Below are positions 715 through 29,422 of a stretch of 32,927 nucleotides of DNA, one piece after another. Origin of the DNA: Nanobdellati archaeon (lineage in GTDB: Archaea; Nanobdellota; Nanobdellia; Woesearchaeales; JAADFO01); assembly GCA_013152815.1 (NCBI GenBank), contig JAADFO010000042.1:1-32927 (forward strand), written 5' to 3'. The first letter of the stretch is position 1, and the number at the start of each line of letters is the position of its first letter. The notes under the pieces are model-generated. The model was not told the DNA's origin. It saw only the letters and a program-made list of their open reading frames with translations, and did not search any database. The position numbers and the translations under genes were made by a program.

Positions 715-1893
715 TTATTTCTTTGTTTTTTTCTTTTTATAATAGAAATATCCTGCTCCAACACCCACAAATAATAACACGACAAGCAGTGTTATAAGAT
801 TATTTGTAGGTCTTTTTACTTCCTTATCAATTGTTGTTTCAAAAGAATGGTGTCCGAAATCATCAGAATAAGAGATTCTTAATGTTGCAGTCTGTACACC
901 AATTGATTCTGGTTTTACATCAAAATAAAAAGGCGCATCATCATCAGATTTCAGTTGTCCTATAAAAGTTTTGTAAGTCTTATTCCGTTGAGTGATTAAT
1001 TCAACAACAACATTATCCGCATCACCAGTTCCAGTATTCTCTATAATGCCTTCCATATGCACTTCATCAACAAGTGTTGGAAATGAAGGCGTAATCTTCA
1101 AACTTTGAATGTCAATATTGGATCTTTCTAAAACATTAACTCCAATATCAAAACTGGTTTCATAACTGCTTCCTTGTTCATCGACATATTCTAAGTTTAT
1201 AGGAAATTTATAGGTATCCGGGGTAAGACTTTCTTTCACAATAAATTCTAAATTAAACGAAACAGTCTTCTCAGGATTTATTTCATTGATTAAATTAATA
1301 TTTGATCCAAGCATCAATATATTATCTGATTGAGGCGTTATTTTTATTTTTCTTGCAATACCTGTTCCAATATTTTTTGCATCGAAATTTATTGTGAATT
1401 TATCTCCTGAAGAAACATTTGCTTCTATTTGTTTTGTTTCTAAAATAATATCCGGCTTACCAACAACTTTAATATCAATAGTATCTGAGGGTTTTATAGT
1501 TATACCATCCCTATAAATCTCAAAATTTAAAGGATATAATCCCGATTTCGCATTTGCATCAACAACCAAATAATATGTATTATCAATAGAGCAACCAACA
1601 CATAAACTTCTTTTATTCTCAAAATTATTACTTTCTGTTTTAATAAAGAAAGGATATCCTGCATTTAGTTTCAATGAAACATCTTCAGCACTCTCTCCAC
1701 CATCATTAATAAGTCTGATTTTTACAGTAACATCTTGACCAGGTTCAACAGGTTCTGGGCTAATCTCTTCTGCAACAACTCGTAAATATGGGGAATCAGC
1801 ATTGTATGTGCTTGCTGAAACAGTATTCACATTGATCAAACTAAGAACGATAATTAAAAATGTAAATATAATTGTTGAATATGTTGGTTTCAT
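715..1893 (-). CDS. COG1361-type S-layer/Ig-like (CARDB-like) domain protein with signal peptide and C-terminal TM anchor
   Basis: Signal peptide, repeated 'PEPVEPGQDVTVKIRLINDG' / 'KNIGTGIA' / 'IENTGTGDADNV' modules, C-terminal TM followed by KKKKTKK. ATG at 1893 is preceded by a GAGGTG SD. Such genes commonly sit beside ABC permeases in archaea. Confidence 0.75.
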   Translation of the reverse strand: MKPTYSTIIFTFLIIVLSLINVNTVSASTYNADSPYLRVVAEEISPEPVEPGQDVTVKIRLINDGGESAEDVSLKLNAGYPFFIKTESNNFENKRSLCVGCSIDNTYYLVVDANAKSGLYPLNFEIYRDGITIKPSDTIDIKVVGKPDIILETKQIEANVSSGDKFTINFDAKNIGTGIARKIKITPQSDNILMLGSNINLINEINPEKTVSFNLEFIVKESLTPDTYKFPINLEYVDEQGSSYETSFDIGVNVLERSNIDIQSLKITPSFPTLVDEVHMEGIIENTGTGDADNVVVELITQRNKTYKTFIGQLKSDDDAPFYFDVKPESIGVQTATLRISYSDDFGHHSFETTIDKEVKRPTNNLITLLVVLLFVGVGAGYFYYKKKKTKK

Positions 1894-2276
1894 TTGTAAC
1901 ACCTCATTTACAGATACTATGTTAGTATATGCTAGTATATAAATAATATGTACCTAACATAGTTCTTTTTGTCAACTCCAACCTAGTAACGCAACAGTTC
2001 CTCAATTCGACTTTTCCGTTACTATTTATTTTTATTTTTCTGTAGCAGAATTTCACAGGTGCGTGACAGCAATTCTTAGCAGATATGCAGAAACAGATGT
2101 TTAAGCGAGAAGCGTCAATTCCTATGAATTTGCTATTTTCAAGCGTTTTTGCATGTTTTTCTGCCACGACGGAAGCGTCACTACAAATATTTCGTTCTGT
2201 CACCACTACAGGGGAGATAAGAACTGCCGGCCTATCTATCAGAACATATTAATATCAGCGTTTTCCCTCATTTAAG

Positions 2277-3380
2277 ATGCAGCATCTCAAACGCATCAAC
2301 GACCACTACTACCGGATCCTTGGCGAACCATCATCCCATGTGCACCGCTACATCTTCACATCTCCAGAGACCAGGGCCATCTGCAACCAGCCTGAAGTGC
2401 TGGGCTGCGAATACACCGACAACATGAGCAGAGCCATGGTAAAGGCCCTCAAGCTCCTGCCCAACGGCACAACGCCCTGGAAAGAGAAGGAGACCTGTGT
2501 GCTCAACTTCCTTCGGGGCGGCCTGAACTTCGACCTCAGGAAAGCCATCCGGCAGGCATGGGGCTTCAACACCCATGCGACCTCCTTCATGTCATCCCAG
2601 CGTTTCAGGAAAGACGGCAGGTGGGGCGTGACCGAGAACCAATACAGGAAGTTCATCTTCCCAAAGGATGCGGTGATGTTCATCGGCGACGTGGTCGCGA
2701 CAGGGGTCACCATCGAAGAGGGCATGAAGGTCATCCTCGATGCGATGGAGAAGAACGGCTCATCCCTCAAAAGGCTCTATTTCTTCACCTTCGGCTGCCA
2801 TAAGGTCGAGAAGGTCCTCGACGACCTGCATGTCGCCTGTAAGGAACGTTTCAAGAACTTCGACCACATCACCGTGATCTATCTCGAAGGAAAGTTCAGG
2901 CTGGCTGACAGCAAGACCACCCTCAGGATAAGCATACCCGGCACCGATCTCCTGAGGACCGATGCCCTCGTCGCGCCGGAGTTCGCCCTGTCTCAATACG
3001 ACGCCCTTTCCCATGCCCTGGAACGATGCATCATCTATGACGCGGGTTCACGTTCATTTGACATCCCTGAATATTCCCAGGACGTGATAGGCTACTGGGA
3101 ACAGGTCAGAAAACTTGCAGAGCAGGGCTTCACGCTCCATGATGCACTGATGGAACGCTGGCCCGAGAAGGCCGTGCCCTTCGAAGCGTTTGCCAGCCTG
3201 AAGAGGGAAGCGTGGCCAGACATCGAAGAGTCCCTGTTGAAGCGGCTCTACGGACGCTCGCAGGAACGGCTGGAGCTGATGGAAGCGTCGAACTCGGCCG
3301 ATGCATTGGTCGGGCTCTGTGACCGGCAGATCGCGAAGATGGATGACATCTCCTCTGGAGAAGGCACAGGAACAGCATGA
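2277..3380 (+). CDS. Type I phosphoribosyltransferase-fold protein (distantly UPRTase-like)
   Basis: PRPP-binding loop VMFIGDVVATGVT and UPRT-like VLNFLRGGL (cf. PILRAGL); 367 aa; TATA-like ATATTAATA about 25 nt upstream. Confidence 0.65.
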   Translation: MQHLKRINDHYYRILGEPSSHVHRYIFTSPETRAICNQPEVLGCEYTDNMSRAMVKALKLLPNGTTPWKEKETCVLNFLRGGLNFDLRKAIRQAWGFNTHATSFMSSQRFRKDGRWGVTENQYRKFIFPKDAVMFIGDVVATGVTIEEGMKVILDAMEKNGSSLKRLYFFTFGCHKVEKVLDDLHVACKERFKNFDHITVIYLEGKFRLADSKTTLRISIPGTDLLRTDALVAPEFALSQYDALSHALERCIIYDAGSRSFDIPEYSQDVIGYWEQVRKLAEQGFTLHDALMERWPEKAVPFEAFASLKREAWPDIEESLLKRLYGRSQERLELMEASNSADALVGLCDRQIAKMDDISSGEGTGTA

Positions 3381-3418
3381 AGGAGAAGAGCAGAAGACTG
3401 CCCGGAAAGACAGTATTT

Positions 3419-4084
3419 CTATGACAACACTGCCTTGATGGAGGCAAAGACTTCTTCAGGCGTTTTGGTGCCGTCTATCTCGACCAGCAGATGAGGACCC
3501 TTCTGACGATAATACGCTTTTATCGGTTCGGTCAGCTCATGGTAGCTCTTCAGCCTGACCTCCACCGCGGCAGGCGTGTCATCCTTGCGCTGCACGAGCT
3601 GTTCTCCTGTCTGGTCGTCATAGGCTGCCACGACATTACCTTCTGGATCCAGATCCATCTTCTTCGGTCTGGGTGTGAAATAGATGTTGTAGCTTCTGCC
3701 AGAAGGCTCATGGGTGTAACGTCCTGCAATCCTCTTGAAGGCCACCTCGTCAGGAACCTCGATGGAGATGACCTTATCAATGGAGGTGACCTCGTCGAGG
3801 GCCTTTGCCTGGGGGATGGTGCGGGGAAAGCCGTCCAGGATGTAGCCGTCCCTGCAGTCAGGCTGGGTAATCCTCTGTTTGATGAGGTCGACCATGAGCT
3901 CATCAGGGACCAGGGAACCCTTGTCCATATACGCCTTCGCCTTGATGCCGAGAGGTGTCTTCTCGTTCACGTTGGACCGGAGGATGTCCCCGGTCGAGAT
4001 ATGAGGGATCTTCAAATGTTCGATGAGATATTTTGATTGCGTCCCTTTTCCGCTGGCTGGCATGCCCATGAGGATGATGTTCAT
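3419..4084 (-). CDS. adk: Adenylate kinase (bacterial/eukaryote-type, long LID)
   Basis: GMPASGKGTQ P-loop, HISTGDILR, GYILDGFPRT, QRKDD. Start moved to ATG at 4084 (MNIILMG), which has an AGGTGA SD. Confidence 0.95.
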   Translation of the reverse strand: MNIILMGMPASGKGTQSKYLIEHLKIPHISTGDILRSNVNEKTPLGIKAKAYMDKGSLVPDELMVDLIKQRITQPDCRDGYILDGFPRTIPQAKALDEVTSIDKVISIEVPDEVAFKRIAGRYTHEPSGRSYNIYFTPRPKKMDLDPEGNVVAAYDDQTGEQLVQRKDDTPAAVEVRLKSYHELTEPIKAYYRQKGPHLLVEIDGTKTPEEVFASIKAVLS

Positions 4085-4146
4085 GTTATCACCTGTCCTT
4101 GTCTTGTCCTTGCCGTGTCCTTGCCTTTTCCCTGATCCTGTCGATA

Positions 4147-4602
4147 TCATCCCAGATACTCGAACTTCTCAGCAAGCGATCGTCTCTTGCTCCATGCATG
4201 TTCCATGTGCAGAAGGACCTCTTCGAGCTTCTCCTTCTGCGCTTTCCAGAACTTGGTCGCTTTCGTGATGTAGGCAGCGGTCTCCTTCTCGTCGTTGCGG
4301 ATGGATATCCTGGCAGACTCCCGTACCAGCCCCATGAAGGTTCGGTAGAGCTCGTAGAACCGCTCCTTCATGGCCTCGTCCAGATCCTGGCATTCATGGA
4401 GATTGACGAGGGTGGTCTCGCACTGCAGGAGTTCCTCGACGATCTTCGCATAATGGTCCAGCCGCTCTTCGACCTTTCGCCTGATGGCCCGGAGCAGATG
4501 GTCCTTGGCGTCTATGGAAGAGATCTCGAATTCTTCGTCCAGTTCCCCGAAGGACGGAAGAGTGTGCTTTTTCTGAAGTGCTGAGAGGTCTTTTTTTTGC
4601 AT
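4147..4602 (-). CDS. Hypothetical helical protein (151 aa)
   Basis: Codon usage matches neighbours; TTTAAA TATA-like element about 25 nt upstream; no recognisable motif. Confidence 0.7.
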   Translation of the reverse strand: MQKKDLSALQKKHTLPSFGELDEEFEISSIDAKDHLLRAIRRKVEERLDHYAKIVEELLQCETTLVNLHECQDLDEAMKERFYELYRTFMGLVRESARISIRNDEKETAAYITKATKFWKAQKEKLEEVLLHMEHAWSKRRSLAEKFEYLG

Positions 4603-4723
4603 ATCCTACGGTGGCAGAGGAGCCTTTAAAAATGTTTTCGTGGAAGTCTTTGCAGAGAAGTCTGGCATGAGAATGCCGGGACGATGCAAAGTATAAAAAG
4701 ACAGACTGATTCCCCCGGAAGAA

Positions 4724-5791
4724 ATGAAACGGAAGCAATTCATCAAGTATGGTGGTCTTCTTGCCGGATCCCTCTTGCTCCCCGCCTCCTCGGCCGACGA
4801 GGATCATCCGACTCCTGAAAGCCTCGTGAAGAAGAGTCTTGACGAGAAGATGGAGGAGATCGAAGAGCTCACGAAGGAGAACAAAGAAGTCAGGAAGCGG
4901 CTGACTGTGCTGAAGGAAGACCGTGAAACCCTCAGCAGCCTCATCATCGATGATCTCAACCGGATGGATTTCTCAGGACATCCATTCTATCCGCGCATCA
5001 GGGTCTTTGAACCCTATCTCGACGCGGCCATCGAACAGTACAGGAACATCTTTCCGGTGGACAAGCTGATGATGATAGAGATGGCAGAGGTGGAATCCGG
5101 CCTTGGCAGGAAGGTCATCTCCAGAGCGGGAGCAGCAGGTCTCTTCCAGTTCATCCCAGAGACAGGCAGACGCATGGGACTTCATATCGAGAAGGACGAG
5201 GACTATGACCGGGCAAGCCATATCCGACCGAGAAGGCAGGCGCTCCAACAGAGGATGAAGCATGAACTCAGATCATTGGAGAAGAGGATCAGGAGGAGCA
5301 TCAAAGGACATTCTTTTCCTGACAGGGAATCGTTTCTTGCCCACCTGAAAAAGGGAGGAAAGAACGCCCGCTGGTACACCCAGGGCTGGCAGAAGCTCGA
5401 AGACGACGCTCTGAAGCTCGCCGCGCTGCAGAACGAGGAACATGATAGTCTTCAGAGGTATAGGCGCCATCTTTACTTGCTAAAACATCTTCCAGAGAAG
5501 AAAAGAGACTCATACGATGAACGCTTCAATCCTGAGAAGAGTACGGTCGCTGCGGTCCATTATGTGGCGATACTGCTGAAACGGGCGAAAGGGAACTATA
5601 TGGAGATGCTCAGCATGTACCATGCGGACGACACCTATCTGGGCATCAAGCCGTTGGAGATCAACGTCAAGCATATCGAGAGGACCGTATCGCTCTATCT
5701 CAGACGGAAAGCACGGTTGCTCAAGGCCAATTATGGGATGATCGTAAGGACATCACCGACCATAGAACCGATGAAGAAAAGATTGATGTGA
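4724..5791 (+). CDS. Secreted lytic transglycosylase (SLT/MltD-like, GH23) with Tat-like signal and coiled coil
   Basis: AEVESG (catalytic Glu), SRAGAAGLFQFIPETGRRMGL, DERFNPEKSTVAAVHY, degenerate motif III MLSMYHA. N-terminus MKRKQFIKYGGLLAGSLLLPASSA. Confidence 0.8.
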   Translation: MKRKQFIKYGGLLAGSLLLPASSADEDHPTPESLVKKSLDEKMEEIEELTKENKEVRKRLTVLKEDRETLSSLIIDDLNRMDFSGHPFYPRIRVFEPYLDAAIEQYRNIFPVDKLMMIEMAEVESGLGRKVISRAGAAGLFQFIPETGRRMGLHIEKDEDYDRASHIRPRRQALQQRMKHELRSLEKRIRRSIKGHSFPDRESFLAHLKKGGKNARWYTQGWQKLEDDALKLAALQNEEHDSLQRYRRHLYLLKHLPEKKRDSYDERFNPEKSTVAAVHYVAILLKRAKGNYMEMLSMYHADDTYLGIKPLEINVKHIERTVSLYLRRKARLLKANYGMIVRTSPTIEPMKKRLM

Positions 5792-5817
5792 ACAAGAGGA
5801 AGGGAAGAGGCGGTTCT

Positions 5818-7509
5818 TCAATGCGTCTTTTCCTCTTTCGTCTCTTTCTGCGAGAACTCTGCCTTTATCCGCGCAGATGCCTCTTCATAGAGCGCGTTCT
5901 TCTTTTTTCTCCTGACGAAAAAGCCAACCAGAAGCAGAAGGGCCAAGCCTGCCAGGCTGATCCCCAGGACAGGAAGATTATTGGAGACGAACGTCCCCAA
6001 AGGACCCATCACCTCCTGCACGCTCACTTTTTCAGCGTCGCGAGGGCCTGCATCCTGCTCACCAGCGTCGGTTGCAGCACTGCTGTTGTCGACGACATTG
6101 CCGTCGGTGTCCTCCATCGCCTGACCTTGCTGGCCCATGATGAGGACAGTGAGGCCTTTATGGAAGGTCTTCCGCTCCCCGCGATCATTCTCATACCAGA
6201 TAGTGGCGTTGATGGGCAAGGAGACATCAGGGGCAGGGAACCGTTCCCGATGGAGCTGGACCGTCTCCCCCGGTCCCAGTTCAGACATCTGCACAGGGAG
6301 CATCCCCATGCCCGGAATAGGGGAGGTTATCTCTGCATGGATGTTGAAGAGAGAGAAAAGGCGGGAAGGGTTGGTGATGTTGATGGTGTAGGTTACCGGC
6401 TCGCCCGGAGCATAACGGGCCTTGTCGGTAACGATGCGTATGTTGGGCCTGTCCATGAACACCTGGACGAAGACCGATGAAGAAGCCTCCCGGATGAAGC
6501 TGCTTTCCCGATACTGGAGCGAGAGGTCCAGGACATACTGGCCGGTGAAGATGCCCTGCACAGTCATCTGGAAGGACTGTTTTGCATCGGGCTCGATCCG
6601 GCCGTTGAAGACGAGCCGTCCATCGTCGCGGTACAGAAAGCCGGTGTTCCTCTCGATGGCAAGACCCGACGGGACAGTGACCTCGAAGGCGTTCACGTCC
6701 ACAGGAAGGTCCGGATTCGTGTTGGTGAGCGTCACGTTGAGGTCAAAGGTCTCATCAAGTTTCACCCGGGTGCTGTTCAGGGATGTCTTGATGGTGAGGG
6801 CAGGTTCCTTGACCGTCAGGGTCTTGGTGTCAGAGACGCTCTTCCCCGTTCCTCTTTCGTCATAGGAGAACGTCGCCCCTGAAGCATAGGTCCCCGGCTT
6901 TTTGGTGGTGAGAGCGTATTTGCATTCCTTCTGCAGCGAAAGGGTAAGGTCTCCTGCCCAATGGACCGTGTTGTCAGAGACGGTGCAGTCCCCGCTCAGG
7001 AGCGTGATGAAGAACTGGTCGGCAGGATAGGGATCGGTGAAGATGCCGTCGGTGGTGTCCGCGTCACCGTCATTGGAGAGCAGCGTGGTCACCTCGATCT
7101 TCTCGCCCAGGATGACCGAGAGAGGATCGATGGTCCTGCTCAGGGATACCTGTGACGCATGCTGTTCTATGGTCACTTCCGCTTTCCACCGGGTGAACTG
7201 GTCTTCCAGGGGAACGGCCTTGGCAGAAGATACATAGCAGAGGATCATGTCGTCTTTCTCGTCACAGTCACCCTGGCCCAGGATGAGCGCAAAGCTGTTC
7301 CAGCGGAGGACGATGCGGTCAGGGAAGCTCTCTGCGCCGTCCGGGAACTGGACCCGGATGGTCTTTCCTCCTGCGCTTATCGTGTCACCATGATAGACCC
7401 AGCCGCTGTAGAGTTCAGTGGCGCCTGACACCGACGAGACAGCCAGTAGGATGAAGAGCAGAGAGGACAGGATAAAGGAAAGGGAGGGGGAACATGCTCG
7501 TTTGCCCAT
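5818..7509 (-). CDS. Cell-surface protein with DUF11/BatD-like beta-sandwich repeats and C-terminal TM anchor
   Basis: Signal peptide; repeats such as 'ILGEKIEVTTLLSNDG', 'LDETFDLNVTLTNTN', 'PGEPVTYTINITNP'; TM helix followed by RRKKK. Confidence 0.7.
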   Translation of the reverse strand: MGKRACSPSLSFILSSLLFILLAVSSVSGATELYSGWVYHGDTISAGGKTIRVQFPDGAESFPDRIVLRWNSFALILGQGDCDEKDDMILCYVSSAKAVPLEDQFTRWKAEVTIEQHASQVSLSRTIDPLSVILGEKIEVTTLLSNDGDADTTDGIFTDPYPADQFFITLLSGDCTVSDNTVHWAGDLTLSLQKECKYALTTKKPGTYASGATFSYDERGTGKSVSDTKTLTVKEPALTIKTSLNSTRVKLDETFDLNVTLTNTNPDLPVDVNAFEVTVPSGLAIERNTGFLYRDDGRLVFNGRIEPDAKQSFQMTVQGIFTGQYVLDLSLQYRESSFIREASSSVFVQVFMDRPNIRIVTDKARYAPGEPVTYTINITNPSRLFSLFNIHAEITSPIPGMGMLPVQMSELGPGETVQLHRERFPAPDVSLPINATIWYENDRGERKTFHKGLTVLIMGQQGQAMEDTDGNVVDNSSAATDAGEQDAGPRDAEKVSVQEVMGPLGTFVSNNLPVLGISLAGLALLLLVGFFVRRKKKNALYEEASARIKAEFSQKETKEEKTH

Positions 7510-7602: not shown

Positions 7603-8307
7603 CTAGCTGTTCCTGATCTCCACCGAGGGGATGGCCTCTTCCATCAAGGTCTTGTACTCCTTCAGCACGTCCATCGACAGGGGTTCCATGTTGTTATACT
7701 TGGGATCGATGGTGGTTGGGACGCCCTTGTACTGCTGCAGCGCATAATGACGGCAACCTTTTATCAGTTCCCTGATGGATTCCATCTCTTTCCGGTCATG
7801 GACGTCAGGGATGATGGTCGTCCTGAACTCATAGTCCACGCCCGAGGTCATGAGCAAGGTGATGCTTTCCCTGATACGGTCCAGGGGGACATGGACTCCG
7901 CTCACCAGGGAGTAATGGTCAGGACCTGCCTTGATGTCCATGGCGATATAGTCCAGGAGACCTTCATCGATGAGCTTCTTGACGATGGAGGGATTGGTTC
8001 CGTTGGTGTCGAGCTTGAGCGACAGCCCCAATGCCTTGATGCGTCTGCAGAGGTCAGGGAGACCGGGCCAGAGGGTCGGTTCTCCGCCGGTGATGCAGAC
8101 CCCGTCGAGCCTGTCTTTGCGGGACGCGAGAAAGGACAGGACCTCATCGACAGGGATCGGGGCTATCCCCGAATGGTCGACCACCAGGTCGCGGTTATGA
8201 CAGAATCCGCAGCGCATGTTGCACCCTGCGATGAAGATGGTCGCCGCGACCTTGCCGGGGTAGTCCACCAGCGTCGTCTTTTGGATGCCTTTTATCATGG
8301 AATGCAT
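7603..8307 (-). CDS. nrdG: Anaerobic ribonucleoside-triphosphate reductase activating enzyme (radical SAM)
   Basis: GCNMRCGFCHN (CxxxCxxC), ITGGEPTL, KLDTNG, YIAMDIK, YEFRTT; directly downstream of nrdD; GAGGTGA SD. Confidence 0.93.
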   Translation of the reverse strand: MHSMIKGIQKTTLVDYPGKVAATIFIAGCNMRCGFCHNRDLVVDHSGIAPIPVDEVLSFLASRKDRLDGVCITGGEPTLWPGLPDLCRRIKALGLSLKLDTNGTNPSIVKKLIDEGLLDYIAMDIKAGPDHYSLVSGVHVPLDRIRESITLLMTSGVDYEFRTTIIPDVHDRKEMESIRELIKGCRHYALQQYKGVPTTIDPKYNNMEPLSMDVLKEYKTLMEEAIPSVEIRNS

Positions 8308-8428
8308 AGGAGGTCACCTCGGAAGAGGATGTCTGTGATGCCGGCCAGCGGAAAACAGCGAAGCCGCCAGGATCAAGAGGGACAAAGACTGGACAAAAAG
8401 AGAAAAAAAGAAAGGAGAGGATAAACCC

Positions 8429-8611
8429 CTAGGAGATGGTCGGCTGCATCTCAACAGCGGTCATCAGCTGCTCAGAGGTCTGCTGCATGTCCTGGGGAAC
8501 GAAGACCTTCCGGTCCTGAAACTCCTGTTTCTTCCCTTCGTTCCAGTTCTCCACCGGTCTGAAATATCCTACAATCCTGCTATAGACCTCACACGGCACC
8601 TTTTTTGTCAT
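8429..8611 (-). CDS. Stand-alone NrdD C-terminal glycyl-radical peptide (60 aa)
   Basis: CEVYSRIVGYFRPVENWNEGKKQEFQDR is the NrdD glycyl-radical loop (RxxGY) and terminal motif. It has its own GGAGGTG SD 6 nt before the ATG and overlaps the nrdD 3' end by 23 nt. Confidence 0.85.
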   Translation of the reverse strand: MTKKVPCEVYSRIVGYFRPVENWNEGKKQEFQDRKVFVPQDMQQTSEQLMTAVEMQPTIS

Positions 8612-10688
8612 CTTTCACACCTCCTTTGATCATGTTCTTGATGTTCTTGTCTGCGATGATCTTCCCCTGGTCATCCACCTCGACACCATAGGTATCCAAC
8701 TCGGCCTCGGTGAACTCATAGGGGCTGAAACGATGTTCACCGGGAATGTAGCCATGGACAGGATCGATGGAGAATGTCGGCGTTATGGTGAAGTAGGGCA
8801 GCTTATAGCCATAGGCGATCTTCTTGACGAGGGATGCTGCGGCCTTCCAGTCAGACACCCGCTCTCCGAGAAAGCCATGGAGCACGGTCCCGCCGGTATA
8901 GAGGCATTGCAGCTCATCCTGATGGTCCAGCGCATCGAAGATATCATCGGTGTGGTCCACAGGCAGCTGAGTCGAGTTGGTATAGTACGGCTTTTCAGGA
9001 CTTCCCGCGGTGATGATGTCAGGGAAGAGCGCCTTGTCCTTCTTGGCGAAGCGATAGGTCGCAGACTCGCAGGGGGTTGCCTCGAGGTTGTAGAGGTTGC
9101 CGGTCTCTTCCTGGAACCGGGTCATCTTCTCCCGGATGTGATGGATCACCTTGAGGGCGAAGGCTCTCCCTTCCTTGGTGTGTATCCCTTTGTCCTTTCC
9201 GAGGAAGTTGAGCATCGATTCGTGCATGCCGTTGATCCCCAGGGTCGAGAAATGCTGCTTATAGGTCCCAAGATAGACCTTGGTGAATGGCATCAGCCCG
9301 TTCTGCAGGTTCTTCTCGACGAGAGCCCGCTTGATCTCAAGAGAATCCTTGGCAAGGTTCAGGAGCCGGTCAAGATACCGGAAATAGTCTGCCTCATCCT
9401 TGGCCATGTATCCTATCCTGGGCAGGTTGATGGTGACGACACCGACAGAGCCGGTCTGGTCGCCTGCACCGAAGAAACCGCCCATCTTGTTGCGGAGTTC
9501 CTTGAGGTCCAGCTGAAGCCTGCAGCACATGGAGCGGACATCGGAGGGCTTGAGCGAGGAGTTGATGAAGTTCTGGAAATAGGGGGTGCCGTATTTTGCT
9601 GTCATCTCAAAGAGCTTTTTCGCGTTCTCGTCTTCCCAGTTGAAATCCCTGGTGATATTGTAGGTGGGGATGGGATAGAAGAACGTCCTGCCGTCGGCAT
9701 CGCCGTCGAGCATCACCTCGATGAATGCCCTGTTGATCATATCCATCTCCTTCTGGCAGTCACCATAGGTGAAGTCCATCTCCTTGCCGCCGACATAGGG
9801 TTTCTCGTCTTTCATGTCATCGGGAACCGTCCAGTCAAAGGTGAAGTTGGTGAAGGGCGCCTGGCAGCTCCATCGGCTCGGAACGTTCAGGGAGAAGATC
9901 AGCATCTGGAGATTCTGCTTGACCTCTTTGTAGTTCAGCTTGTCTGACTTGACGAAGGGAGCGAGCAGGGTATCCACCGAAGAGAAGGCCTGGGCTCCCG
10001 CATGCTCCATCTGGAGCGTGCCCATGAAATTGACCATCTGGATGACCACCACCTCAAGATGTTTCGGTGGCTTCGAGCGTATCTTCTTGGAAGGTCCTCC
10101 AAAGCCCGTGATCAGCAGGTTCTTCAATGACCAGCCTGCACAGTAGCCGACCACTCCATAGCCGAGGTCGTGGATATGCAGCTCACCGTTCTGATGGGCC
10201 TGGGAGATGGTGGACGGATAGACCTGGTTCAGCATATAGTTGGCGATGAGCTTTCCCGCCAGATGGGACATGAGGCCGGAGAAGGAATAGTCGGAGTTGG
10301 AGTTCTCGAATACCCGCCAGTCTGTCTGCCGCAGATATTCGTCCATGGTCTTGTTGACCGAAAGGAAGGTCCCGTGGTCTGCCCGCAGAAGGTCATGCTG
10401 CTTCCGGTAGAGGATATAGGCCTTGGCAGTCTTGACATGGCTGTTCTTGATGAGCACACGTTCCACAAGATCCTGGATATCGTCTATGCTCGGCGGATCC
10501 TTGCGTGAGAAGCTCTTGTTGAGCTCGGCAAGGACCTCATCGGTCAGTTTTTCTGCAGGAGCCCTATCGTCCCCTCCGACAGCCGTGGCTGCCGCAAAGA
10601 TGGCATCTTCAATCTTTTTTCTTTCGAAGGGAGCCAGTCTCCCGTCCCTTTTCTTGACGACACTGATGGTAGCTTTCGATTGGTTCAT
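8589..10688 (-). CDS. nrdD: Class III (anaerobic) ribonucleoside-triphosphate reductase, ATP-cone plus catalytic barrel, lacking the glycyl-radical loop
   Basis: ATP cone VVKKRDGRLAPFERKKI; HIHDL, YCAGW, AGAQAF, RSMCCRL finger loop, EATPCES, YYTNST, YTGGTVLH. ATG at 10688 has an AAGGTG SD (alternative GTG at 10694). Confidence 0.93.
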   Translation of the reverse strand: MNQSKATISVVKKRDGRLAPFERKKIEDAIFAAATAVGGDDRAPAEKLTDEVLAELNKSFSRKDPPSIDDIQDLVERVLIKNSHVKTAKAYILYRKQHDLLRADHGTFLSVNKTMDEYLRQTDWRVFENSNSDYSFSGLMSHLAGKLIANYMLNQVYPSTISQAHQNGELHIHDLGYGVVGYCAGWSLKNLLITGFGGPSKKIRSKPPKHLEVVVIQMVNFMGTLQMEHAGAQAFSSVDTLLAPFVKSDKLNYKEVKQNLQMLIFSLNVPSRWSCQAPFTNFTFDWTVPDDMKDEKPYVGGKEMDFTYGDCQKEMDMINRAFIEVMLDGDADGRTFFYPIPTYNITRDFNWEDENAKKLFEMTAKYGTPYFQNFINSSLKPSDVRSMCCRLQLDLKELRNKMGGFFGAGDQTGSVGVVTINLPRIGYMAKDEADYFRYLDRLLNLAKDSLEIKRALVEKNLQNGLMPFTKVYLGTYKQHFSTLGINGMHESMLNFLGKDKGIHTKEGRAFALKVIHHIREKMTRFQEETGNLYNLEATPCESATYRFAKKDKALFPDIITAGSPEKPYYTNSTQLPVDHTDDIFDALDHQDELQCLYTGGTVLHGFLGERVSDWKAAASLVKKIAYGYKLPYFTITPTFSIDPVHGYIPGEHRFSPYEFTEAELDTYGVEVDDQGKIIADKNIKNMIKGGVKDDKKGAV

Positions 10689-10734: not shown

Positions 10735-10783
10735 ACACAACATATTGTGTCTCTATTTAAAATCAGCACACAACATGCTGTGG
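10735..10783. promoter_or_regulatory. Two NrdR-box-like operators flanking the putative nrdD TATA box
   Basis: ACACAACATATTGTGT (10735-10750) and ACACAACATGCTGTGG (10768-10783) resemble the NrdR consensus acaCwAtATaTwGtgt. They are 33 bp apart, with TTTAAATA (minus strand) between them. Confidence 0.7.
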
Positions 10784-10877: not shown

Positions 10878-10950
10878 AGCCCTCGGTGGGAGTCGAACCC
10901 ACGACCTGCAGATTACAAGTCTGCCGCAATAGCCACTATGCTACGAGGGC
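10878..10950 (-). tRNA. tRNA-Thr(UGU), intronless, no encoded CCA
   Basis: GCCCTCG acceptor pairs with CGAGGGC; anticodon arm GCAGA-CTTGTAA-TCTGC; T arm GTGGG-TTCGACT-CCCAC; discriminator U followed by a T-run. Confidence 0.95.
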
Positions 10951-14777: not shown

Positions 14778-15158
14778 CTATTTCTCTTCCTTGAGTTTCT
14801 TGAACGTCTCAGGAAGGTCGATGACATACTTGCCTTCGGCAAGCTTGTAGATGACCGGCCGCTTCCTGAAGAGATTGACGAGGTCCAGCTCATATTTGCC
14901 GGGCTTGAGGATCCGGATGCTCTCCAGGTCCAGGACCACCGGTTCATCCGTCTTATGATCCAGGCCGACAATGTCAAAGACGTCCTTCTCTATCTGCGTC
15001 TTCTCGGCCTTGGTGAGCTGGGTGGTTATCTTCTTGGACTCTTCCACCCGGTCCTTGCGCACATAGAAGAACAGTTTGGAGCCGCAGCTGCATCCGCTGA
15101 GTATCTCCTCTGCCCCGTCGGGATAGAGCGTAGAACAACGGACACAACGATGGGGCAT
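14778..15158 (-). CDS. oapC: OapC/ArvC Zn-ribbon protein (DUF2072)
   Basis: MPHRCVRC...GCSCGSKLFFY, ESIRILKPGKYELDLVNLF, EGKYVIDL; third gene of the cluster. Confidence 0.85.
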   Translation of the reverse strand: MPHRCVRCSTLYPDGAEEILSGCSCGSKLFFYVRKDRVEESKKITTQLTKAEKTQIEKDVFDIVGLDHKTDEPVVLDLESIRILKPGKYELDLVNLFRKRPVIYKLAEGKYVIDLPETFKKLKEEK

Positions 15159-15159
15159 G

Positions 15160-15555
15160 TCACTTCCTCCTCCGCCTTGTCTTCTTCTTGGTCTCTTCGA
15201 TGAAGAGCTGTATCTTGTCAGGATCGCGCTTGATGTCCTTGACGAGCTGGGCGGGTCCGATGATGGTCATGCCTATCCTGTCCCCCAGGAGCAGGTTTGC
15301 CATGCCTTTCTTGAACCGGTCGACCAGGGCGCCGTCATCCTTGTCAGGATTCATCACCGAGAGCTCGATGCCCTTGAACCGGTTGTCGATCTTTTCCATG
15401 GTGATCTCGATGAGGTCCTTCTCCTCTTCCTTCCGGAGACGGCCCTCCATGAGGATGATGTTTCCCGCCATGACCAGGTCCAGGAGCTTGTTGATCCTCT
15501 TCGCCGAAGAGAGGTGATCGATATCAGCATAGGGTATATATTGGAAGGTCAACAT
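15160..15555 (-). CDS. oapB: OapB/ArvB (DUF2073)
   Basis: IILMEGRLRKEEEKDLIEITMEKIDNRFKGIE, GMTIIGPA; lies between the GTPase and the Zn-ribbon gene. Confidence 0.85.
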   Translation of the reverse strand: MLTFQYIPYADIDHLSSAKRINKLLDLVMAGNIILMEGRLRKEEEKDLIEITMEKIDNRFKGIELSVMNPDKDDGALVDRFKKGMANLLLGDRIGMTIIGPAQLVKDIKRDPDKIQLFIEETKKKTRRRRK

Positions 15556-15557
15556 GG

Positions 15558-16190
15558 CTATGCAGCCTCCTCGAGAAGCACATCATAGAACGCATCGATG
15601 TTCGTCCCCTTGGTCGCGGAGATGCCGACTATGGTGTATTGAGGGAACGCGGCCTCGATCTTCTTGAGCTTGGCCTTCTTGAGGTCCAGCTTGTTCCCGA
15701 CGATGATGACCGGGATGTTCCTAGCCTGGAGGTTCCCGATGATGGTCAGGTTGACCTGAGAGAAGGGGTCCTGGGTCGCGTCGAGGACGATGATGACATA
15801 GTCCATGTCGTCCAGCCACTTGATGGAGTCGATGACGCCCTTGGTGGCCTCCTTGGCACGCTTCTTGGCCTCCTTGTCTTTCAGCCCTGCCTTGATGAAG
15901 TCCTCGTAGTCGATCTTGGTAGCGATGCCGGGTGTATCGACCAGGTTGAAGGAGAGCTCCTTGTCGGCTCGCTTGATGTTGACCTGCTCCTTGATCTGGA
16001 TCTCCCGGGTCTCATGGGCGATGCTCGATGCTTTCCCCATCTCTTCCCCGAGCCAGTCCTTGCATATCCTGTTGGCAAGGGTGGTCTTCCCTGCGTTGGG
16101 AGGACCATAGAGCCCTATCTTGACGTGCTTCTTCTTCCTGAAGAGATTCCTGAAAAAACGGTTCAGGAATCGTTGGAACAGCTTCATCAT
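15558..16190 (-). CDS. oapA: OapA/ArvA small Era/Ras-like GTPase with N-terminal amphipathic helix
   Basis: IGLYGPPNAGKTTLANRI, HETR, DTPG, EATKGV, DPFSQVN, NKLD, ISA. Confidence 0.88.
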   Translation of the reverse strand: MMKLFQRFLNRFFRNLFRKKKHVKIGLYGPPNAGKTTLANRICKDWLGEEMGKASSIAHETREIQIKEQVNIKRADKELSFNLVDTPGIATKIDYEDFIKAGLKDKEAKKRAKEATKGVIDSIKWLDDMDYVIIVLDATQDPFSQVNLTIIGNLQARNIPVIIVGNKLDLKKAKLKKIEAAFPQYTIVGISATKGTNIDAFYDVLLEEAA

Positions 16191-16339
16191 AGGGCAACCA
16201 CTGGCTAAAACTTGGATGCGCCTAGTATTTAAAGTTTACCTTAAAGTGTACCATCAGCCCCGGCATTTCGGCTCACTGCAAGGTTACGAAACGCCGACCA
16301 AAAACTATATGAACCCTTTTTTCCAGAAGACGGTAACGG

Positions 16340-16447
16340 ATGAACATCAGGGACCTAGCAGCGTTGACAGGGAAGACAGTGACCGAGGTCGAACAGATGC
16401 TCAAAGAAGATGATGTCATCAGAATCAATCTCAACAAGATAAGATAA
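16340..16447 (+). CDS. Small 35-aa protein, HTH-like
   Basis: Below the ORF-track cutoff. MNIRDLAALTGKTVTEVEQMLKEDDVIRINLNKIR*; AAAAACTATATG (BRE/TATA-like) about 30 nt upstream; pyrimidine-rich tract downstream. Confidence 0.6.
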   Translation: MNIRDLAALTGKTVTEVEQMLKEDDVIRINLNKIR

Positions 16448-16503
16448 AGAGGTGAGAGAAGACAAGGTCCCCTGTTCATCCGTCTCTTCTCACTCAGTTC
16501 TTC

Positions 16504-17709
16504 TCATTTCTTTTTCGGTGTTCTGGTGGACCGTTTGATGCTCATGCTTGCCCTGAGGATGGCTTCGACGGCCTGCACATCTTCCCGCTTGACCTTGCTG
16601 CGGCTATGCATGCGCGCATGGGCCCGGGCAAGACGGACGATGCCGTGGATGAGCCGGGGGGACACCTCGATGAGCAGGTCGTTCTCCTGCTTCTTCAGCT
16701 GCTGGCCTATGAGGACCACATCCTCCTTCAGGCTGGAAGGGAAGACTATGTCAAGCGCGAGGGTCTTTTCTATATATTCACGGATGACCTCCTTTTCGGT
16801 TGCGCTGATCTTATGGGTCTTGCCGCTGACGATATGCTCAGATATCTTCTTGAACTCCTTGAGAGAAGGACCTCTGATGAGGAAGACCAGATGGAACCGT
16901 GACAGCAGAGCAGGGTCGAAGGGCATCTGTTTTTTCAGGAGGGCCACATCGTTCCCTACGAAACGGTCGCCCTTCGGGTTGGCCGTCGCCAGGATCCGGA
17001 CCCGGGCATCCAGCCGCACGTTCTTGCTTCCTTTGCTGTAGGTGATGAAGCCCTTCTCCATGGCATTGTAGAGAGCGGCATAGTCCTGCTCTTTCATGAG
17101 GTTGAGCTCATCGATGCAGCAGATGCCCTGATCGGCAAGGGGCAGGAGCCCTTTGATCATCTCTTTTCCTTTGAACATGACGGTGAGCCCGACACCCGAT
17201 GTCCCTGAGCCAAGACCGAAAGAAGCTATCGGGGCCAATTCTTCGGTGGCCCGCAGGATGTCGGTCTTGCCGGTGCCCGGATCGCCCAGGAGCAGGAGAT
17301 GGATGGGCTCATCAGAGAAGAGCTGGAGCAGGGCCGCCTTCTTGACAGGCTCCATGCCTATGATGTGGTTGGCGAAGGACTCCAGGAGGACCCATGGGTC
17401 TTTGGTGATCTTCCTCATCGCTTTCCGGCGTATGCGCTCCTTGATGCTGTTGTTGAGGCCTGCACAGAGCTGCCCCAGCTCTGGGTCCTCGGTAGCGGGC
17501 CGGATGGACGGAAAGGAGGCTTTCGGATAGAGTCGGGATGACAGGTGGAGCGGAGAGGAGAATATCCCTGCCCTGCCCTGTCGCAGAAGTGTCCTGGCGA
17601 GGGAAAGCTCGTTCGCGTCAAGAAAGTCCTCAAGGGAAGCCAGGGCATCCTTGTTCTGGGGAGACAGCGGAAGCATGCCTTTCAGCAGATGCTTGAATCT
17701 TAGGGGCAT
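16504..17709 (-). CDS. MCM-family AAA+ ATPase lacking the canonical N-terminal and WH domains
   Basis: HIIGMEPVKKA, HLLLLGDPGTGKT (Walker A), GICCIDELN (Walker B), ILATANPKG (sensor 1), LLSRFHL (Arg finger), VSPRL (sensor 2). Start chosen at ATG 17709 from the position of a TATA-like element. Confidence 0.82.
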   Translation of the reverse strand: MPLRFKHLLKGMLPLSPQNKDALASLEDFLDANELSLARTLLRQGRAGIFSSPLHLSSRLYPKASFPSIRPATEDPELGQLCAGLNNSIKERIRRKAMRKITKDPWVLLESFANHIIGMEPVKKAALLQLFSDEPIHLLLLGDPGTGKTDILRATEELAPIASFGLGSGTSGVGLTVMFKGKEMIKGLLPLADQGICCIDELNLMKEQDYAALYNAMEKGFITYSKGSKNVRLDARVRILATANPKGDRFVGNDVALLKKQMPFDPALLSRFHLVFLIRGPSLKEFKKISEHIVSGKTHKISATEKEVIREYIEKTLALDIVFPSSLKEDVVLIGQQLKKQENDLLIEVSPRLIHGIVRLARAHARMHSRSKVKREDVQAVEAILRASMSIKRSTRTPKKK

Positions 17710-17745
17710 GGACAGAAGGAAGGCAGAGCACATTAAATGGTTTAT

Positions 17746-17811
17746 GGAATTATGGAAAGAAGAAAGCGGAATCATGGAAGGAAGAGGCGGAATTGTGGAA
17801 AGAAGAAGGGC
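17746..17811. repeat. Three imperfect tandem 21-23 bp direct repeats
   Basis: GGAATTATGGAAAGAAGAAAGC (17746-17767), GGAATCATGGAAGGAAGAGGC (17768-17788), GGAATTGTGGAAAGAAGAAGGGC (17789-17811). Confidence 0.8.
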
Positions 17812-17887
17812 GACCAGAGAAGCCAAGAGACCGACTGACCAGAGTCGGAGGGAAACAATTAAATAGGCTCAGCAGCTAAGAAGACCC

Positions 17888-24636: not shown

Positions 24637-25935
24637 TCATGGCCCCATCCGGAGCATGGTCCGGGGGAAAGGTATGGCATCCTTGATGTTGTCCAGGCCG
24701 CAGATCCACTTGATGACCCGTTCCAGGCCGACTCCGTAGCCAGAGTGGGGAACAGAGCCGTATCTCCTGAGGTCGAAGTAGAACTGGTAGGGTGAAAGGT
24801 CGACCTCACCGTCTGCCTTGAGCCGCAGAGACATGTCTTTGATGTCGAGGCTGCGCTGGCTGCCGCCGACGATCTCTCCACCTCCCTTCGGAGCGAGCAT
24901 GTCAAAGCACAACGCTTCGTCAGGCTGGTCAGGGTCGGCAGGCTTGTAGAATGCCATGATCTTGGTCGGGTAGTGAGTGACGACCACAGGAGTATCGAAG
25001 TGCTCCATGAGCTTGTCCTCTTCGACGGTCCGCAGGTCCTTTCCGAAGGGCACGTTTATGCCTGCTTTCTCCTGCAGTATCTTGAGGGCCTCCCGGTACT
25101 TGATGGTCGGCCAGGGAGTTTCTGCAATCTTGCGGAGCGCTTCGGGGTCCTGACCGAGGAACTGAAGTTCCTCGCTTCGTTTCTCGATGACCTTGCTGAT
25201 GCAGTATTTGATCTCTCTCTTGGCGAATTCCGAGATAGCAGGGAGATCCATCCAGGCAGCCTCCATCTCCACCATCCAAAACTCGGAGAGATGCCTCGAG
25301 GTCTTTGACTTCTCGGCCCGGAACGTCGGCCCGGTGTTGTAGCATCTCTCCAGGGCGAAGATCGCCGCCTCTCCGTAGAGCTGCCAGGTCTGGGCAAGGT
25401 AGGTCTTCCGGTCATAGTACTTGACCTCGAAGACCGTGCTGCCTCCCTCGCTCTGCATGGGCTGGAGGATGGGCGAGTCGAAACGGTAGAACCCTTCCTT
25501 CTCGAAGAAAGCTTCCCTGGCCTGGACATAGGTCGAGCGTATCTTGAGGATGGCCGTCATCTTCCTGCTCCTCAGCCAGAGGTGCCGGTTGTCCAAAAGG
25601 AATTCAGGGGACTGGTCTTTGGTGATGGGAAAGGTGTCAGAATAGCCGACGGTCTTCAGGGTCTCCACCTGGATCTCATAGCCCGTCGGAGCCCGTTCAT
25701 CTTTCTTGATCTCACCGATGATCTCCACCGATGCTTCTACCTGGAGTTTCTTGGCCTCCTCAAAATCCTTGTGGTCTGCGCCGAGGACGCATTGGATGAT
25801 GTTGGAGCTGTCACGGATGATGATGAACCGTACCTTGTTCGAGCCTCGCTCTCGCCAGACCCAACCTCTCACAGCTACCTTTCCCTTGCCCTTGTCCATG
25901 GCAGCCTGTATCGATTGGTATTCCATCCTGGCCAT
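24637..25935 (-). CDS. asnS: Asparaginyl-tRNA synthetase (archaeal-type)
   Basis: OB anticodon domain (VRGWV...FIIIRD), LLDNRHLWLRS, FRAEKSKTSRHLSEFWMVEME (motif 2), EIVGGSQR, YGSVPHSGYGVGLER (motif 3). Confidence 0.92.
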   Translation of the reverse strand: MARMEYQSIQAAMDKGKGKVAVRGWVWRERGSNKVRFIIIRDSSNIIQCVLGADHKDFEEAKKLQVEASVEIIGEIKKDERAPTGYEIQVETLKTVGYSDTFPITKDQSPEFLLDNRHLWLRSRKMTAILKIRSTYVQAREAFFEKEGFYRFDSPILQPMQSEGGSTVFEVKYYDRKTYLAQTWQLYGEAAIFALERCYNTGPTFRAEKSKTSRHLSEFWMVEMEAAWMDLPAISEFAKREIKYCISKVIEKRSEELQFLGQDPEALRKIAETPWPTIKYREALKILQEKAGINVPFGKDLRTVEEDKLMEHFDTPVVVTHYPTKIMAFYKPADPDQPDEALCFDMLAPKGGGEIVGGSQRSLDIKDMSLRLKADGEVDLSPYQFYFDLRRYGSVPHSGYGVGLERVIKWICGLDNIKDAIPFPRTMLRMGP

Positions 25936-25981
25936 CAGTTAACGACGGTGCGTATTTAAATGTTTGGGGCCGGAATGGCCC

Positions 25982-26920
25982 CTAGATGACAATATGTTTT
26001 CCAGGCACTCTCGGGAAGAGGGTCACCTCTTCGATGTGGCTGCTGCCGGTCACCCAACGCAGGAGCCGTTCTACACCGAAGCCGCCGCCCGAGGTCCGGG
26101 GTATCTTCCCCTGCCTGACGAGTTCCAGGTATGCCCCATAGGGTTCTCTGTCCATCTTCCGCTCATCCATCTTACGGATCACTTCGTCATAGACATATTC
26201 CCGTTCCCCTCCTGACAGTGCCTCGCCGAACCCTTCCGGATAGATGAGGTCATAGTTGTGGTAATAGCCTCGTCTTTTCTCGTCTTCCCGGTCGTAGAAC
26301 TCCCGGGTATGGTCGAGGACCCAGAACGGTTCGCTGGAAGCTTTCGACAGGATGCCCTCCCATCCCTCACCGTACTTTCTCAGAAGCTCCTTCGACTCAT
26401 AGACCTTGAAAGGCCGTGTCGGTGTCGTGAGCTTCCGCCTGAAATAGGCAAGCTCGTCAGGACAGGTATGCTTCAGGCCGGCTATCATCTTCACGTAGAG
26501 CTCTTCAGTAAGGTCCATGAATGCCCGCTTGTCCTTCCCTTTCATTTCGATGTCGACCTGGGAGAACTCTATGAGATGCCTCCCCGAATCCTTGCAGTCT
26601 TCGCTCTCCAGCCGTACGTTGGGTGAGACGATGAAGACAGCGTCAACACCCTTGCCCATGAGCATGATGAACTTATGGAGGATCATGCTCTTGGTCAGCC
26701 GGAGCGTCTGGGAACCGTATTGTATGGCAGCCTCAGAGACCTCATGGTTCAACGGGTCGGTGAAGGGCGCGAGCATGACTGGCATGGCCTGCAGGATCCC
26801 TTTCTCTTCCATGAAATCTGAGATCGATTTCAGGAGAGTGCTCTGTATCTTCAGGAGGTGTCTGGTCCTCGCTGATTCGAATTTTTGTATGATCTGTTGT
26901 GTCTGTTGCGTTCGTTGCAC
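25982..26920 (-). CDS. AsnRS-like asparagine synthetase A (archaeal AS-AR), no anticodon-binding domain
   Basis: TDPLNH, LTKSMILHK, SPNVRLE, GRHLIEFSQVDIE, NYDLIYPEGFGEALSGGERE, GGGFGVERL. GTG at 26920 has an AGGTGA SD (alternative start 26929). Confidence 0.88.
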   Translation of the reverse strand: MQRTQQTQQIIQKFESARTRHLLKIQSTLLKSISDFMEEKGILQAMPVMLAPFTDPLNHEVSEAAIQYGSQTLRLTKSMILHKFIMLMGKGVDAVFIVSPNVRLESEDCKDSGRHLIEFSQVDIEMKGKDKRAFMDLTEELYVKMIAGLKHTCPDELAYFRRKLTTPTRPFKVYESKELLRKYGEGWEGILSKASSEPFWVLDHTREFYDREDEKRRGYYHNYDLIYPEGFGEALSGGEREYVYDEVIRKMDERKMDREPYGAYLELVRQGKIPRTSGGGFGVERLLRWVTGSSHIEEVTLFPRVPGKHIVI

Positions 26921-27150
26921 GATAATCACCTTGTACCTTGTGGAGCAGATTGCTATGTGTTGACCGTATATCGACAGAAAAGAAAGGCATCTAGAAGGAA
27001 CGATTACCGTCTTGGGCCGCTTTTGGGATGTACATGGGTATCAGACGATAAGGAAGCAGGACGAGTATATTAAGATATTCCAAGAAAGATGAAAAGATAT
27101 GCAAGAATATGCATAAAATATATAAGTTATGGGATGCTTATTCCATAATT

Positions 27151-27600
27151 ATGATTACTCTCGACGATAAAGACAGGAAAATTCTTGAGCTTCTCCGTAA
27201 GAACTCCCGGCTCTCCACCCAGGCCATATCGAAGAAGACCATCATCCCCATAACGACCGTGCATAACCGTCTGAAGAAGCTCAGGAAGACAGGGGTGATC
27301 AGACGATGGACCATAGAGGTGGATGAGGAGAAGCTCGGGAGGCCCATCGCGGCCCACATCCTCGTGACCGTCGAATATCCGAAAGCCAGGAAGCCAAAGG
27401 ACTTCCAGGAATCCATAGCAAGGCGGCTCAAAGGATACGATGAGGTGCAAGGGGTCAACATCATCGCCGGCAAAAGTGACATCATGGTCTTCCTCAGGGC
27501 ATCCTCGATGAAAGCGTTGAACGACTTCATCCTCGAGAAGCTCCGCACCATAGAGGGTGTCGACAAGACCGAGACCATGGTCGTCATGCAGGAGTTCTGA
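27151..27600 (+). CDS. Lrp/AsnC-family transcriptional regulator
   Basis: LDDKDRKILELLRKNSRLS...TVHNRLKKLRKTGVI HTH, RAM domain (IIAGKSDI, IEGVDKTET); divergent from AS-AR. Confidence 0.92.
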   Translation: MITLDDKDRKILELLRKNSRLSTQAISKKTIIPITTVHNRLKKLRKTGVIRRWTIEVDEEKLGRPIAAHILVTVEYPKARKPKDFQESIARRLKGYDEVQGVNIIAGKSDIMVFLRASSMKALNDFILEKLRTIEGVDKTETMVVMQEF

Positions 27601-27643
27601 AGAATCGACACCCATAAAAGGGGAATTGTCTTCGCTCTCTGTT

Positions 27644-29368: not shown

Positions 29369-29422
29369 GTAAATGACACTCCATCTACCCTCCTTTTTCT
29401 TAGAATCCTATGAATATGAATA

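Follow-up and report, generated by a model that had tools for sequence, protein, structure and literature searches.

A class III ribonucleotide reductase encoded by two genes in a Nanobdellati archaeon, with the glycyl-radical loop on a small protein of its own

Introduction

In published accounts of class III ribonucleotide reductases (RNRs), the catalytic chain itself ends in the glycyl-radical domain (PMC9669993, PMC11226230). One-chain enzymes of this kind are the NrdD proteins of T. maritima (4COI/4U3E), P. copri (8P23) and phage T4 (1H78), and family PRK08270. Here we describe a locus of a Nanobdellati archaeon in which nrdD ends before the radical loop, the loop is encoded by a small tail gene of 60 codons, and the activase gene nrdG follows. 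The locus lies in a stretch of 32,927 nucleotides (nt), contig JAADFO010000042.1 of assembly GCA_013152815.1, which was analysed as a whole and is referred to as the window.

Small autonomous radical-loop proteins have been described for pyruvate formate-lyase (PFL). E. coli has GrcA/YfiD and phage T4 has Y06I as spare parts of that enzyme, and GrcA, with 127 amino acids (aa) and the PFL fold, repairs an enzyme that is made full-length (PMC8683613). [quoted passage not shown] Among RNRs, the C-terminal part is a separate polypeptide in the class II enzyme NrdJa/NrdJb of Pseudomonas aeruginosa (PMC9669993, PMC4520616), which differs from the enzyme considered here in class and cofactor, NrdJb being a large folded subunit and not a protein-radical peptide. 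The other split RNRs described among the sources consulted (PMC9669993, PMC13450708, PMC4390871, PMC11226230, PMC3019208, PMC2864759, PMC8683613, PMC3653736, bioRxiv 2022.04.23.489257) are phage genes broken by introns, inteins or endonucleases, and an unexplained three-piece phage nrdD. Full-text searches of the openly accessible literature turned up no account of a class III radical domain with a gene of its own, and the two-gene form of class III RNR is apparently so far undescribed.

Organisation of the locus

The three genes, nrdD, the small tail gene and nrdG, all lie on the minus strand (Table 1). NrdD has 701 aa if translation starts at the GTG at 10694 and 699 aa from the ATG at 10688. 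It scores 1028 bits against PRK08270 (cut-off 548) and 481 bits against TIGR02487 (cut-off 326), matches the ATP-cone model PF03477, and carries at residues 388-392 an SMCCR motif, invariant across 78 aligned sequences, of the MGCR or MCCR type that defines the finger-loop cysteines (PMC9669993). The locus thus has the family score, the finger loop and the adjoining NrdG activase of a class III RNR, and shares ATP-cone, barrel, double-cysteine MCCR loop, RxxGY loop, NrdG2 activase and gene order with the one-chain systems. It differs from them in having its radical loop encoded by a gene of its own and, in the window's lineage, a degenerate predicted zinc site.

The NrdD chain stops after GGVKDDKKGAV and has no RxxGY loop. 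Family model PF13597, 562 positions long, falls into two complementary halves at this locus: positions 1-521 are covered by the NrdD body and positions 532-562 by the 60-aa protein (E 2e-10). NrdD by itself has no C-terminal RxxGY loop, which is present only when the two genes are taken together. The small gene is read in the +1 frame relative to nrdD, overlaps its end by 23 nt, and is preceded by a Shine-Dalgarno (SD) sequence, GGAGGTG (8624-8618), with a spacing of 6 nt to the ATG at 8611. The first-pass annotation had proposed this arrangement, namely a NrdD that ends without the loop, an overlapping +1-frame open reading frame (ORF) of 60 codons with a strong SD of its own between nrdD and nrdG, and a three-component RNR. 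These structural observations hold, to which the annotation had not added that everything lies on the minus strand, and the hidden Markov model (HMM) matches, the SD and the conservation described below bear out a three-gene class III RNR.

Table 1. Features of the locus in window coordinates
Feature	Position	Strand	Basis
nrdD body: ATP-cone, class III RNR barrel and SMCCR finger loop (C390/C391), without glycyl-radical loop	8589..10694	-	PRK08270, TIGR02487, PF03477, PF13597
Small gene, 60 aa, glycyl-radical loop; core conserved over residues 6-37 or so, then a variable tail	8429..8611	-	PF13597 532-562; 318 small homologs
Shine-Dalgarno GGAGGTG of the small gene, inside the last nrdD codons	8618..8624	-	sequence; 8-nt match
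A6 run within the 23-nt overlap, suspected error site	8601..8606	-	sequence
Gly15 codon, predicted radical site	8567..8569	-	profile alignment to known radical glycines
nrdG, radical-SAM (S-adenosylmethionine) activase	7603..8307	-	TIGR02495 NrdG2, 203.5 bits, cut-off 131
NrdD C-terminal extension (TEAELDTYGVEV...), predicted to pack on the N-terminal strand of the peptide	8592..8711	-	common to most of 117 loop-less homologs; residues 663-678 in modelled interface
Degenerate predicted zinc site of NrdD: D644, H647, S657, F661 (C, H, C, H in the clade)	8712..8765	-	alignment
U-rich, terminator-like tract directly after the small gene	8403..8430	-	terminator-like matches at 8430-8413, consensus match only
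Two NrdR-box-like palindromes upstream of nrdD	10735..10783	.	2 consensus matches

Conservation of the split in relatives

The two-gene form of class III RNR is real and widespread. We found 318 small homologs of the 60-aa protein, and of 227 genome loci with a peptide match, the best 80 comprised 28 adjacent splits, 46 fused genes and 6 loci without nrdD in view, three of the latter near contig edges. The split is found in Woesearchaeota, Iainarchaeota, Chloroflexota, Spirochaetota, WOR-3 and Margulisbacteria. We did not treat records titled 'Methanosarcinales' as a lineage of their own, since the junction sequences of one of them (L079) are identical to those of an order-mate of the window's genome (G139, L202). 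The 21 NrdDs fetched from the same order comprise 7 split and 12 fused ones and 2 that are cut at contig ends. The loop is also missing from 117 of the 120 proteins that best match the C-terminal region of NrdD, a count that gives no frequency estimate since the query favours such ends. Small tail ORFs are common, and the layout is accordingly a trait widespread in the family and not peculiar to the window.

Finished replicons are split as well. Sulfuricurvum kujiense has a 704-aa body and a 58-aa tail, and the pHG1 replicon of Cupriavidus necator H16 repeats the three-gene layout with nrdD (676 aa), H16_RS32675 (66 aa) and nrdG; RefSeq annotates body and tail as separate genes. The H16 locus has a gap of 142 nt in place of the overlap found here, and its zinc ligands are intact. 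It is cited in the literature as nrdDG only (PMC2864759, PMC3019208), and the former paper reports nrdDG to be essential for complete denitrification in this genetically tractable isolate.

The closest relative of the window's NrdD is a sister protein, P0124 (86% core identity, support 100), with a nearly identical end. Together with the small protein P0005, with which it was paired by their shared source (both are Logan records whose longest contig has 5,692 nt), it would have the same overlap geometry, and at most 3 A in a row would be possible there. Junctions were compared over 67 split loci that differ from one another and whose core is complete. Frame offsets of 0, +1 and +2 occur 15, 21 and 31 times and the distances from nrdD to the tail range from -122 to +1259 nt; an in-frame stop is found in 15 loci and a gap of more than 20 nt in 23. 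An in-frame ATG is present at the tail in 65/67, and the nearest such ATG has an SD match of at least 5 nt in 54/67, as against 3.9% of 3,249 ATGs internal to nrdD. Over 30 ungapped codons, the proportion of nonsynonymous differences (pN) lies below that of synonymous differences (pS) in all 2,211 pairs of small genes, among them the 66 that involve the window's peptide. Most pS values are saturated, and several close pairs have no replacements at a pS of 0.11-0.47.

Given the sister, apparently without an A-run, the varied offsets and gaps, the SD enrichment and the finished split genomes, both an assembly error and frameshifting are unlikely. The warning of the first-pass annotation that one A less in the A6 run would fuse the frames can thus largely be laid aside, whereas its other warning, that small NrdD-tail ORFs may exist elsewhere, proved right. 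It had also asked whether relatives keep the split and the SD, and the sister appears to keep the split, as do a third of the order-mates fetched, and most split junctions have an SD.

Predicted radical glycine and modelled docking of the peptide

Thirteen positions of the peptide, E8, Y10, S11, R12, V14, G15, Y16, P19, W23, G26, K27, E30 and R34, are invariant in 98 aligned small proteins. The profile of these 98 proteins aligns Gly15 with the glycine of RIVGY in T. maritima NrdD 4COI (E 0.005) and, weakly, with that of RITGY in P. copri NrdD 8P23 (E 0.74). The latter glycine is Gly711 if a tag offset of four residues is assumed, and Gly711 is the radical site of the P. copri enzyme (PMC11226230). 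A profile was needed for these matches, as the peptide searched as a single sequence against the PDB returned nothing relevant. The significant Pfam and NCBIfam matches of the peptide were to NrdD models only, and no PFL or YfiD chain appeared among its PDB matches up to E 10.

Modelling of NrdD together with the peptide, a check that the first-pass annotation had suggested with NrdG included, supports docking: the complex scores 0.81 and the best control 0.00. The mark used for this score is reached by 116/157 solved pairs and 2/215 mismatched pairs, although the pass may reflect likeness to the solved one-chain NrdDs. Runs agree in at least 84% of contacts, with a partner pLDDT (predicted local distance difference test) of at least 75. 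The modelled contacts join peptide residues 4-10 to NrdD 638-641, 651-655 and 667-668 (699-aa numbering).

Evolution of the junction and of the zinc site

A FastTree phylogeny was made of 132 NrdD cores, 73 split and 59 fused; six of the split rows are database proteins scored only by the missing loop. The split or fused state changes at least 17 times on this tree, with 10 changes forced by well-supported branches, and the shuffled mean is 43.5. The tree indicates that fission or re-fusion of nrdD happened repeatedly. In the loci read, the break lies within or just after the zinc-binding region, before the strand that leads to the radical loop. The ends differ between lineages. Judged by eye, both chains of the Spirochaetes have heptad-like helical ends, and the window's clade has an NrdD extension of the HTEEELEKYGV type. 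A second NrdD clade (about 28% identity; L158, L160, L162, L180, L184, L188-L195) is broken between the two CxxC halves of the zinc ribbon, implying a zinc site that would be shared between the two chains. Some small tail genes also encode the glutaredoxin domain that ends their fused relatives.

In the alignment, C642, H645, C655 and H659 (alignment numbering) are nearly invariant, and three of the four are replaced in the window's NrdD, where H647 is kept; the first-pass annotation had not remarked on this. The predicted ligands read D/H/S/F in the window protein, C/H/S/F in its sister and C/H/C/H in the clade. C-H-C ligands are present in 115/119 parsed homologs, and the third ligand differs only in the window protein and the sister, the same two in which a longer C-terminal extension accompanies the loss. 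NrdD of the window type is possibly a zinc-free class III RNR.

Additional and viral tail genes

Of 301 genomes of the order surveyed, 114 had a tail match, six of them unpublished and left out of further analysis; we examined 60 stretches around short-ORF and multi-copy matches. Tails away from nrdD occur at 15 loci in 13 genomes, with a further one (G259) close to the edge of a contig. Antioxidant genes (rubrerythrin, AhpC, ferritin, thioredoxin-reductase-like) are found within 3 kb of 4/15 extra tails and of 1/47 nrdD-linked loci (Fisher p 0.010). The extra tail of G136 shares an overlap with a Fur-family gene and has three rubrerythrin-family genes downstream, and that of G151 lies upstream of glutaredoxin, AhpC and ferritin genes. 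Next to five of the extra tails is a divergent Lrp-type regulator. At L150, L152, L156 and L179, free tails whose N-terminal domains are Cys-rich (CxxC...CxxxC) point away from an Lrp/AsnC regulator and form a conserved small cassette. NrdR-box-like sites were found at 4/16 extra tails and 8/37 nrdD starts of the order, and at none of the seven tails beside antioxidant or Lrp genes.

Free tails also accompany fused NrdDs, in G076, G081 and G176. In each of the first two, a pair of fused NrdD paralogs goes with a pair of free tails, and each tail is closer to a different paralog (20 vs 14 and 18 vs 14 of 29 residues in G076, 23 vs 21 and 20 vs 18 in G081). The distant paralogs stand in tandem with one activase (L151 of G076, 1618-6253; L153 of G081, 1284-7310), and in G081 a 554-aa protein with thymidylate-synthase, MtrA and pterin-binding domains is encoded between them. 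Another genome, G068, has a fused NrdD with nrdG and a separate split NrdD with a tail but without its own activase, adjoining an Lrp regulator (L154, L155). Two of the unpublished genomes (G185 C80, G246 C5) show three tail matches at intervals of about 2 kb, all of them in frames of 680-776 aa, suggesting three tandem NrdD paralogs.

Viruses carry the tail too. In the best 80 of 168 viral loci, viewed with 3.5-kb flanks, there were 81 tail matches: 59 without NrdD in the flanks (four of these with odd boundaries), 9 unclear, 8 fused and 5 adjacent splits. Among 90 of the 111 ORFs flanking lone viral tails (47 loci), Pfam gave no RNR, glycyl-radical enzyme or activase, and there was no common partner. 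Virus ANMV-1 encodes a 144-aa protein made of a Cys-rich domain and an NrdD tail (L112, 2680-3114), with no NrdD in the 6 kb viewed. Two Spirochaetota genomes also have a lone tail gene inside a prophage region resembling Mu (AAA ATPase, Mu Gam; L045, L098, about 3900-4240).

Other genes of the genome and the window

The only NrdD of the window's genome (G000) is the one without the loop. A six-frame HMM scan of its 32,188 ORFs (1.49-Mb assembly, 90.8% complete) returned no second tail gene, the next-best match having E 0.07. The genome also has class I RNR genes, for an alpha chain with two ATP-cones, whose end includes a masked stretch, and for beta (C51:15383-19303). We take this enzyme to be class I from the two ATP-cone matches and from its motifs; its presence is consistent with some exposure to O2. 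A second NrdG-like radical-SAM gene (C41:12567-13361) stands beside dUTPase- and thymidylate-kinase-like genes; no partner was found, and it resembles the activases that adjoin tandem NrdD paralogs in other genomes.

Upstream of nrdD, two NrdR-box-like palindromes that match a consensus were found where 0.02 were expected, and none of 100 shuffles reached two; NrdR itself is encoded in this archaeal genome (C43:20652-21092). The terminator-like tract after the small gene may lower nrdG relative to nrdD and the peptide. Just upstream of the nrdD promoter region lies a tRNA-Thr(TGT) gene (10878-10950, minus strand). Elsewhere in the window, an oapC-oapB-GTPase cluster of origin-associated genes stands beside a short MCM-like gene (14778-17826, minus strand), and three class II (D/K/N) tRNA-synthetase-like genes lie close together (24637-31177, minus strand), one with a bacterial-type GAD domain and one without an anticodon domain. 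At 4724-5791 (plus strand) this archaeal genome has a lytic-transglycosylase-like gene with an SLT domain.

Discussion

We consider it quite probable, from sequence and structural modelling, that the locus encodes a two-chain class III RNR in which the 60-residue peptide docks in the barrel and carries the glycyl radical in trans. Translation of the peptide would begin at its own start codon and be coupled to that of the nrdD end. Its N-terminal strand would then pair with the last strands and the C-terminal extension of NrdD, substituting for the covalent linker. NrdG would abstract a hydrogen atom from Gly15, and the radical would be passed to a finger-loop cysteine, as in one-chain NrdD.

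Several points weigh against this two-chain enzyme. The finger-loop cysteines are missing from the confidently named contacts of the complex model. [quoted passage not shown] Finally, residue 650 of the H16 NrdD is the glycine of CPTHGY, in the large chain. Siedow is said to have found in 1999 that a G650A variant is inactive.

The peptide can be compared with GrcA. Both are encoded by separate small genes that hold only a radical domain, and the window's peptide is predicted to complete the barrel in trans, with relatives that also occur as extra chromosomal and viral copies, a pattern that resembles that of GrcA and T4 Y06I. GrcA has a PFL fold, whereas the peptide belongs to PF13597 and, judging from these profiles, is not a member of the GrcA family; it likely works in trans as GrcA does. 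A full-length partner, as GrcA has, is present in G076, G081 and G176 and lacking in the window's genome. Since NrdD is encoded here without the loop, the peptide would be the only radical carrier, unlike GrcA.

A further step could follow from this arrangement. Cleavage by O2 at Gly15 would destroy the peptide only, and a fresh peptide could take over. We regard such replacement, which the first-pass annotation had proposed, as a little less likely than not. Indirect support comes from other genomes and from viruses: extra tails in Fur, rubrerythrin and peroxiredoxin clusters, free tails that accompany fused NrdDs and lie closer to different paralogs, and viral tails with no NrdD in the flanks. 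Weighing against it, this genome has a single tail copy, co-encoded with nrdD. In addition, 11/15 extra tails have no antioxidant neighbour (six queries), the Fisher p overstates the association, which was picked up post hoc in genomes that are related, and the tails of G081 are closer to their respective paralogs by margins of only two residues.

The alternative that survives best, which concerns replacement only, is neutral gene fission: the two chains would form a permanent complex, with no exchange and no protection from O2. We give this reading somewhat less than an even chance. The alternation of split and fused forms on the tree is as expected if both work equally well, and the single co-encoded copy of this genome fits as well. 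Seemingly firm docking devices in some lineages, as judged by eye (the helical ends of the Spirochaetes, the CxxC pair across chains in the second clade), point the same way. Free tails kept where NrdDs are fused, in Fur, rubrerythrin and AhpC clusters, and in viruses speak against it, as does the radical domain being highly mobile even in the one-chain P. copri NrdD (PMC11226230). Given the single copy and the extra tails that lack antioxidant neighbours, neutral fission stays a serious rival at this locus.

Other explanations bear on the two-chain enzyme as such. The locus could be decaying, with the zinc-site loss and the break leaving it non-functional and the class I RNR doing the job; D644, S657 and F661 in place of conserved C, C and H and the presence of that second enzyme would suit this. 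We consider it improbable: the sister is already short of two ligands and yet keeps its high core identity, the SMCCR motif, ATP-cone, nrdG and NrdR-like boxes are intact, and pN is below pS in every pair with the window's peptide. Less probable still is +1 ribosomal frameshifting or transcriptional slippage at the A6 run, which would yield one fused NrdD and make ATG and SD incidental. One base in the run would indeed cancel the offset, but the sister apparently has no such run, the other split loci show in-frame stops (15/67), the other offset (31/67) or gaps of more than 20 nt (23/67), and the RNA fold at the junction has no unusual structure (z -0.5).

It is also very improbable that the large chain itself bears the radical at the glycine of xxHGY (G648 here, G650 in H16), leaving the small gene dispensable, a reading that the reported G650A phenotype would favour. 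HG is found in 48/52 parsed fused NrdDs and 57/67 split ones, is absent in 10 split and is replaced by Ser in the loop-less P0137. Being equally common in fused NrdDs and missing in some split ones, it behaves as expected of a structural zinc-knuckle glycine, whereas the peptide glycine is invariant (98/98) and aligned with known radical glycines. An extra A in the homopolymer of a normal fused gene, conceivable in a metagenome-type assembly with an A6 run, is hardly credible given an independent sister in which the overlap recurs, apparently without the run, the 117/120 loop-less homologs (a query that favours such ends) and an 8-nt SD at the expected spacing.

More broadly, and tentatively, class III RNRs may own a family of autonomous glycyl-radical peptides unrelated to GrcA. 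These would serve as obligate subunits of split enzymes, as here, as paralog-specific spares for fused enzymes induced by peroxide stress, or as virus-borne boosters of host deoxynucleoside triphosphate synthesis, with the window's lineage doing without structural zinc. If true, it would mark the first case outside PFL of a radical subunit that can be replaced. The split layout makes the spare-part question directly testable, with a synthetic peptide of 60 residues and the genetics of C. necator H16, and the peptide would be a natural minimal substrate for studying radical installation by NrdG. The split would also explain the many RefSeq proteins of 40-70 aa named 'anaerobic ribonucleoside-triphosphate reductase', and it would serve as a warning that nrdD genes without the loop are not pseudogenes.

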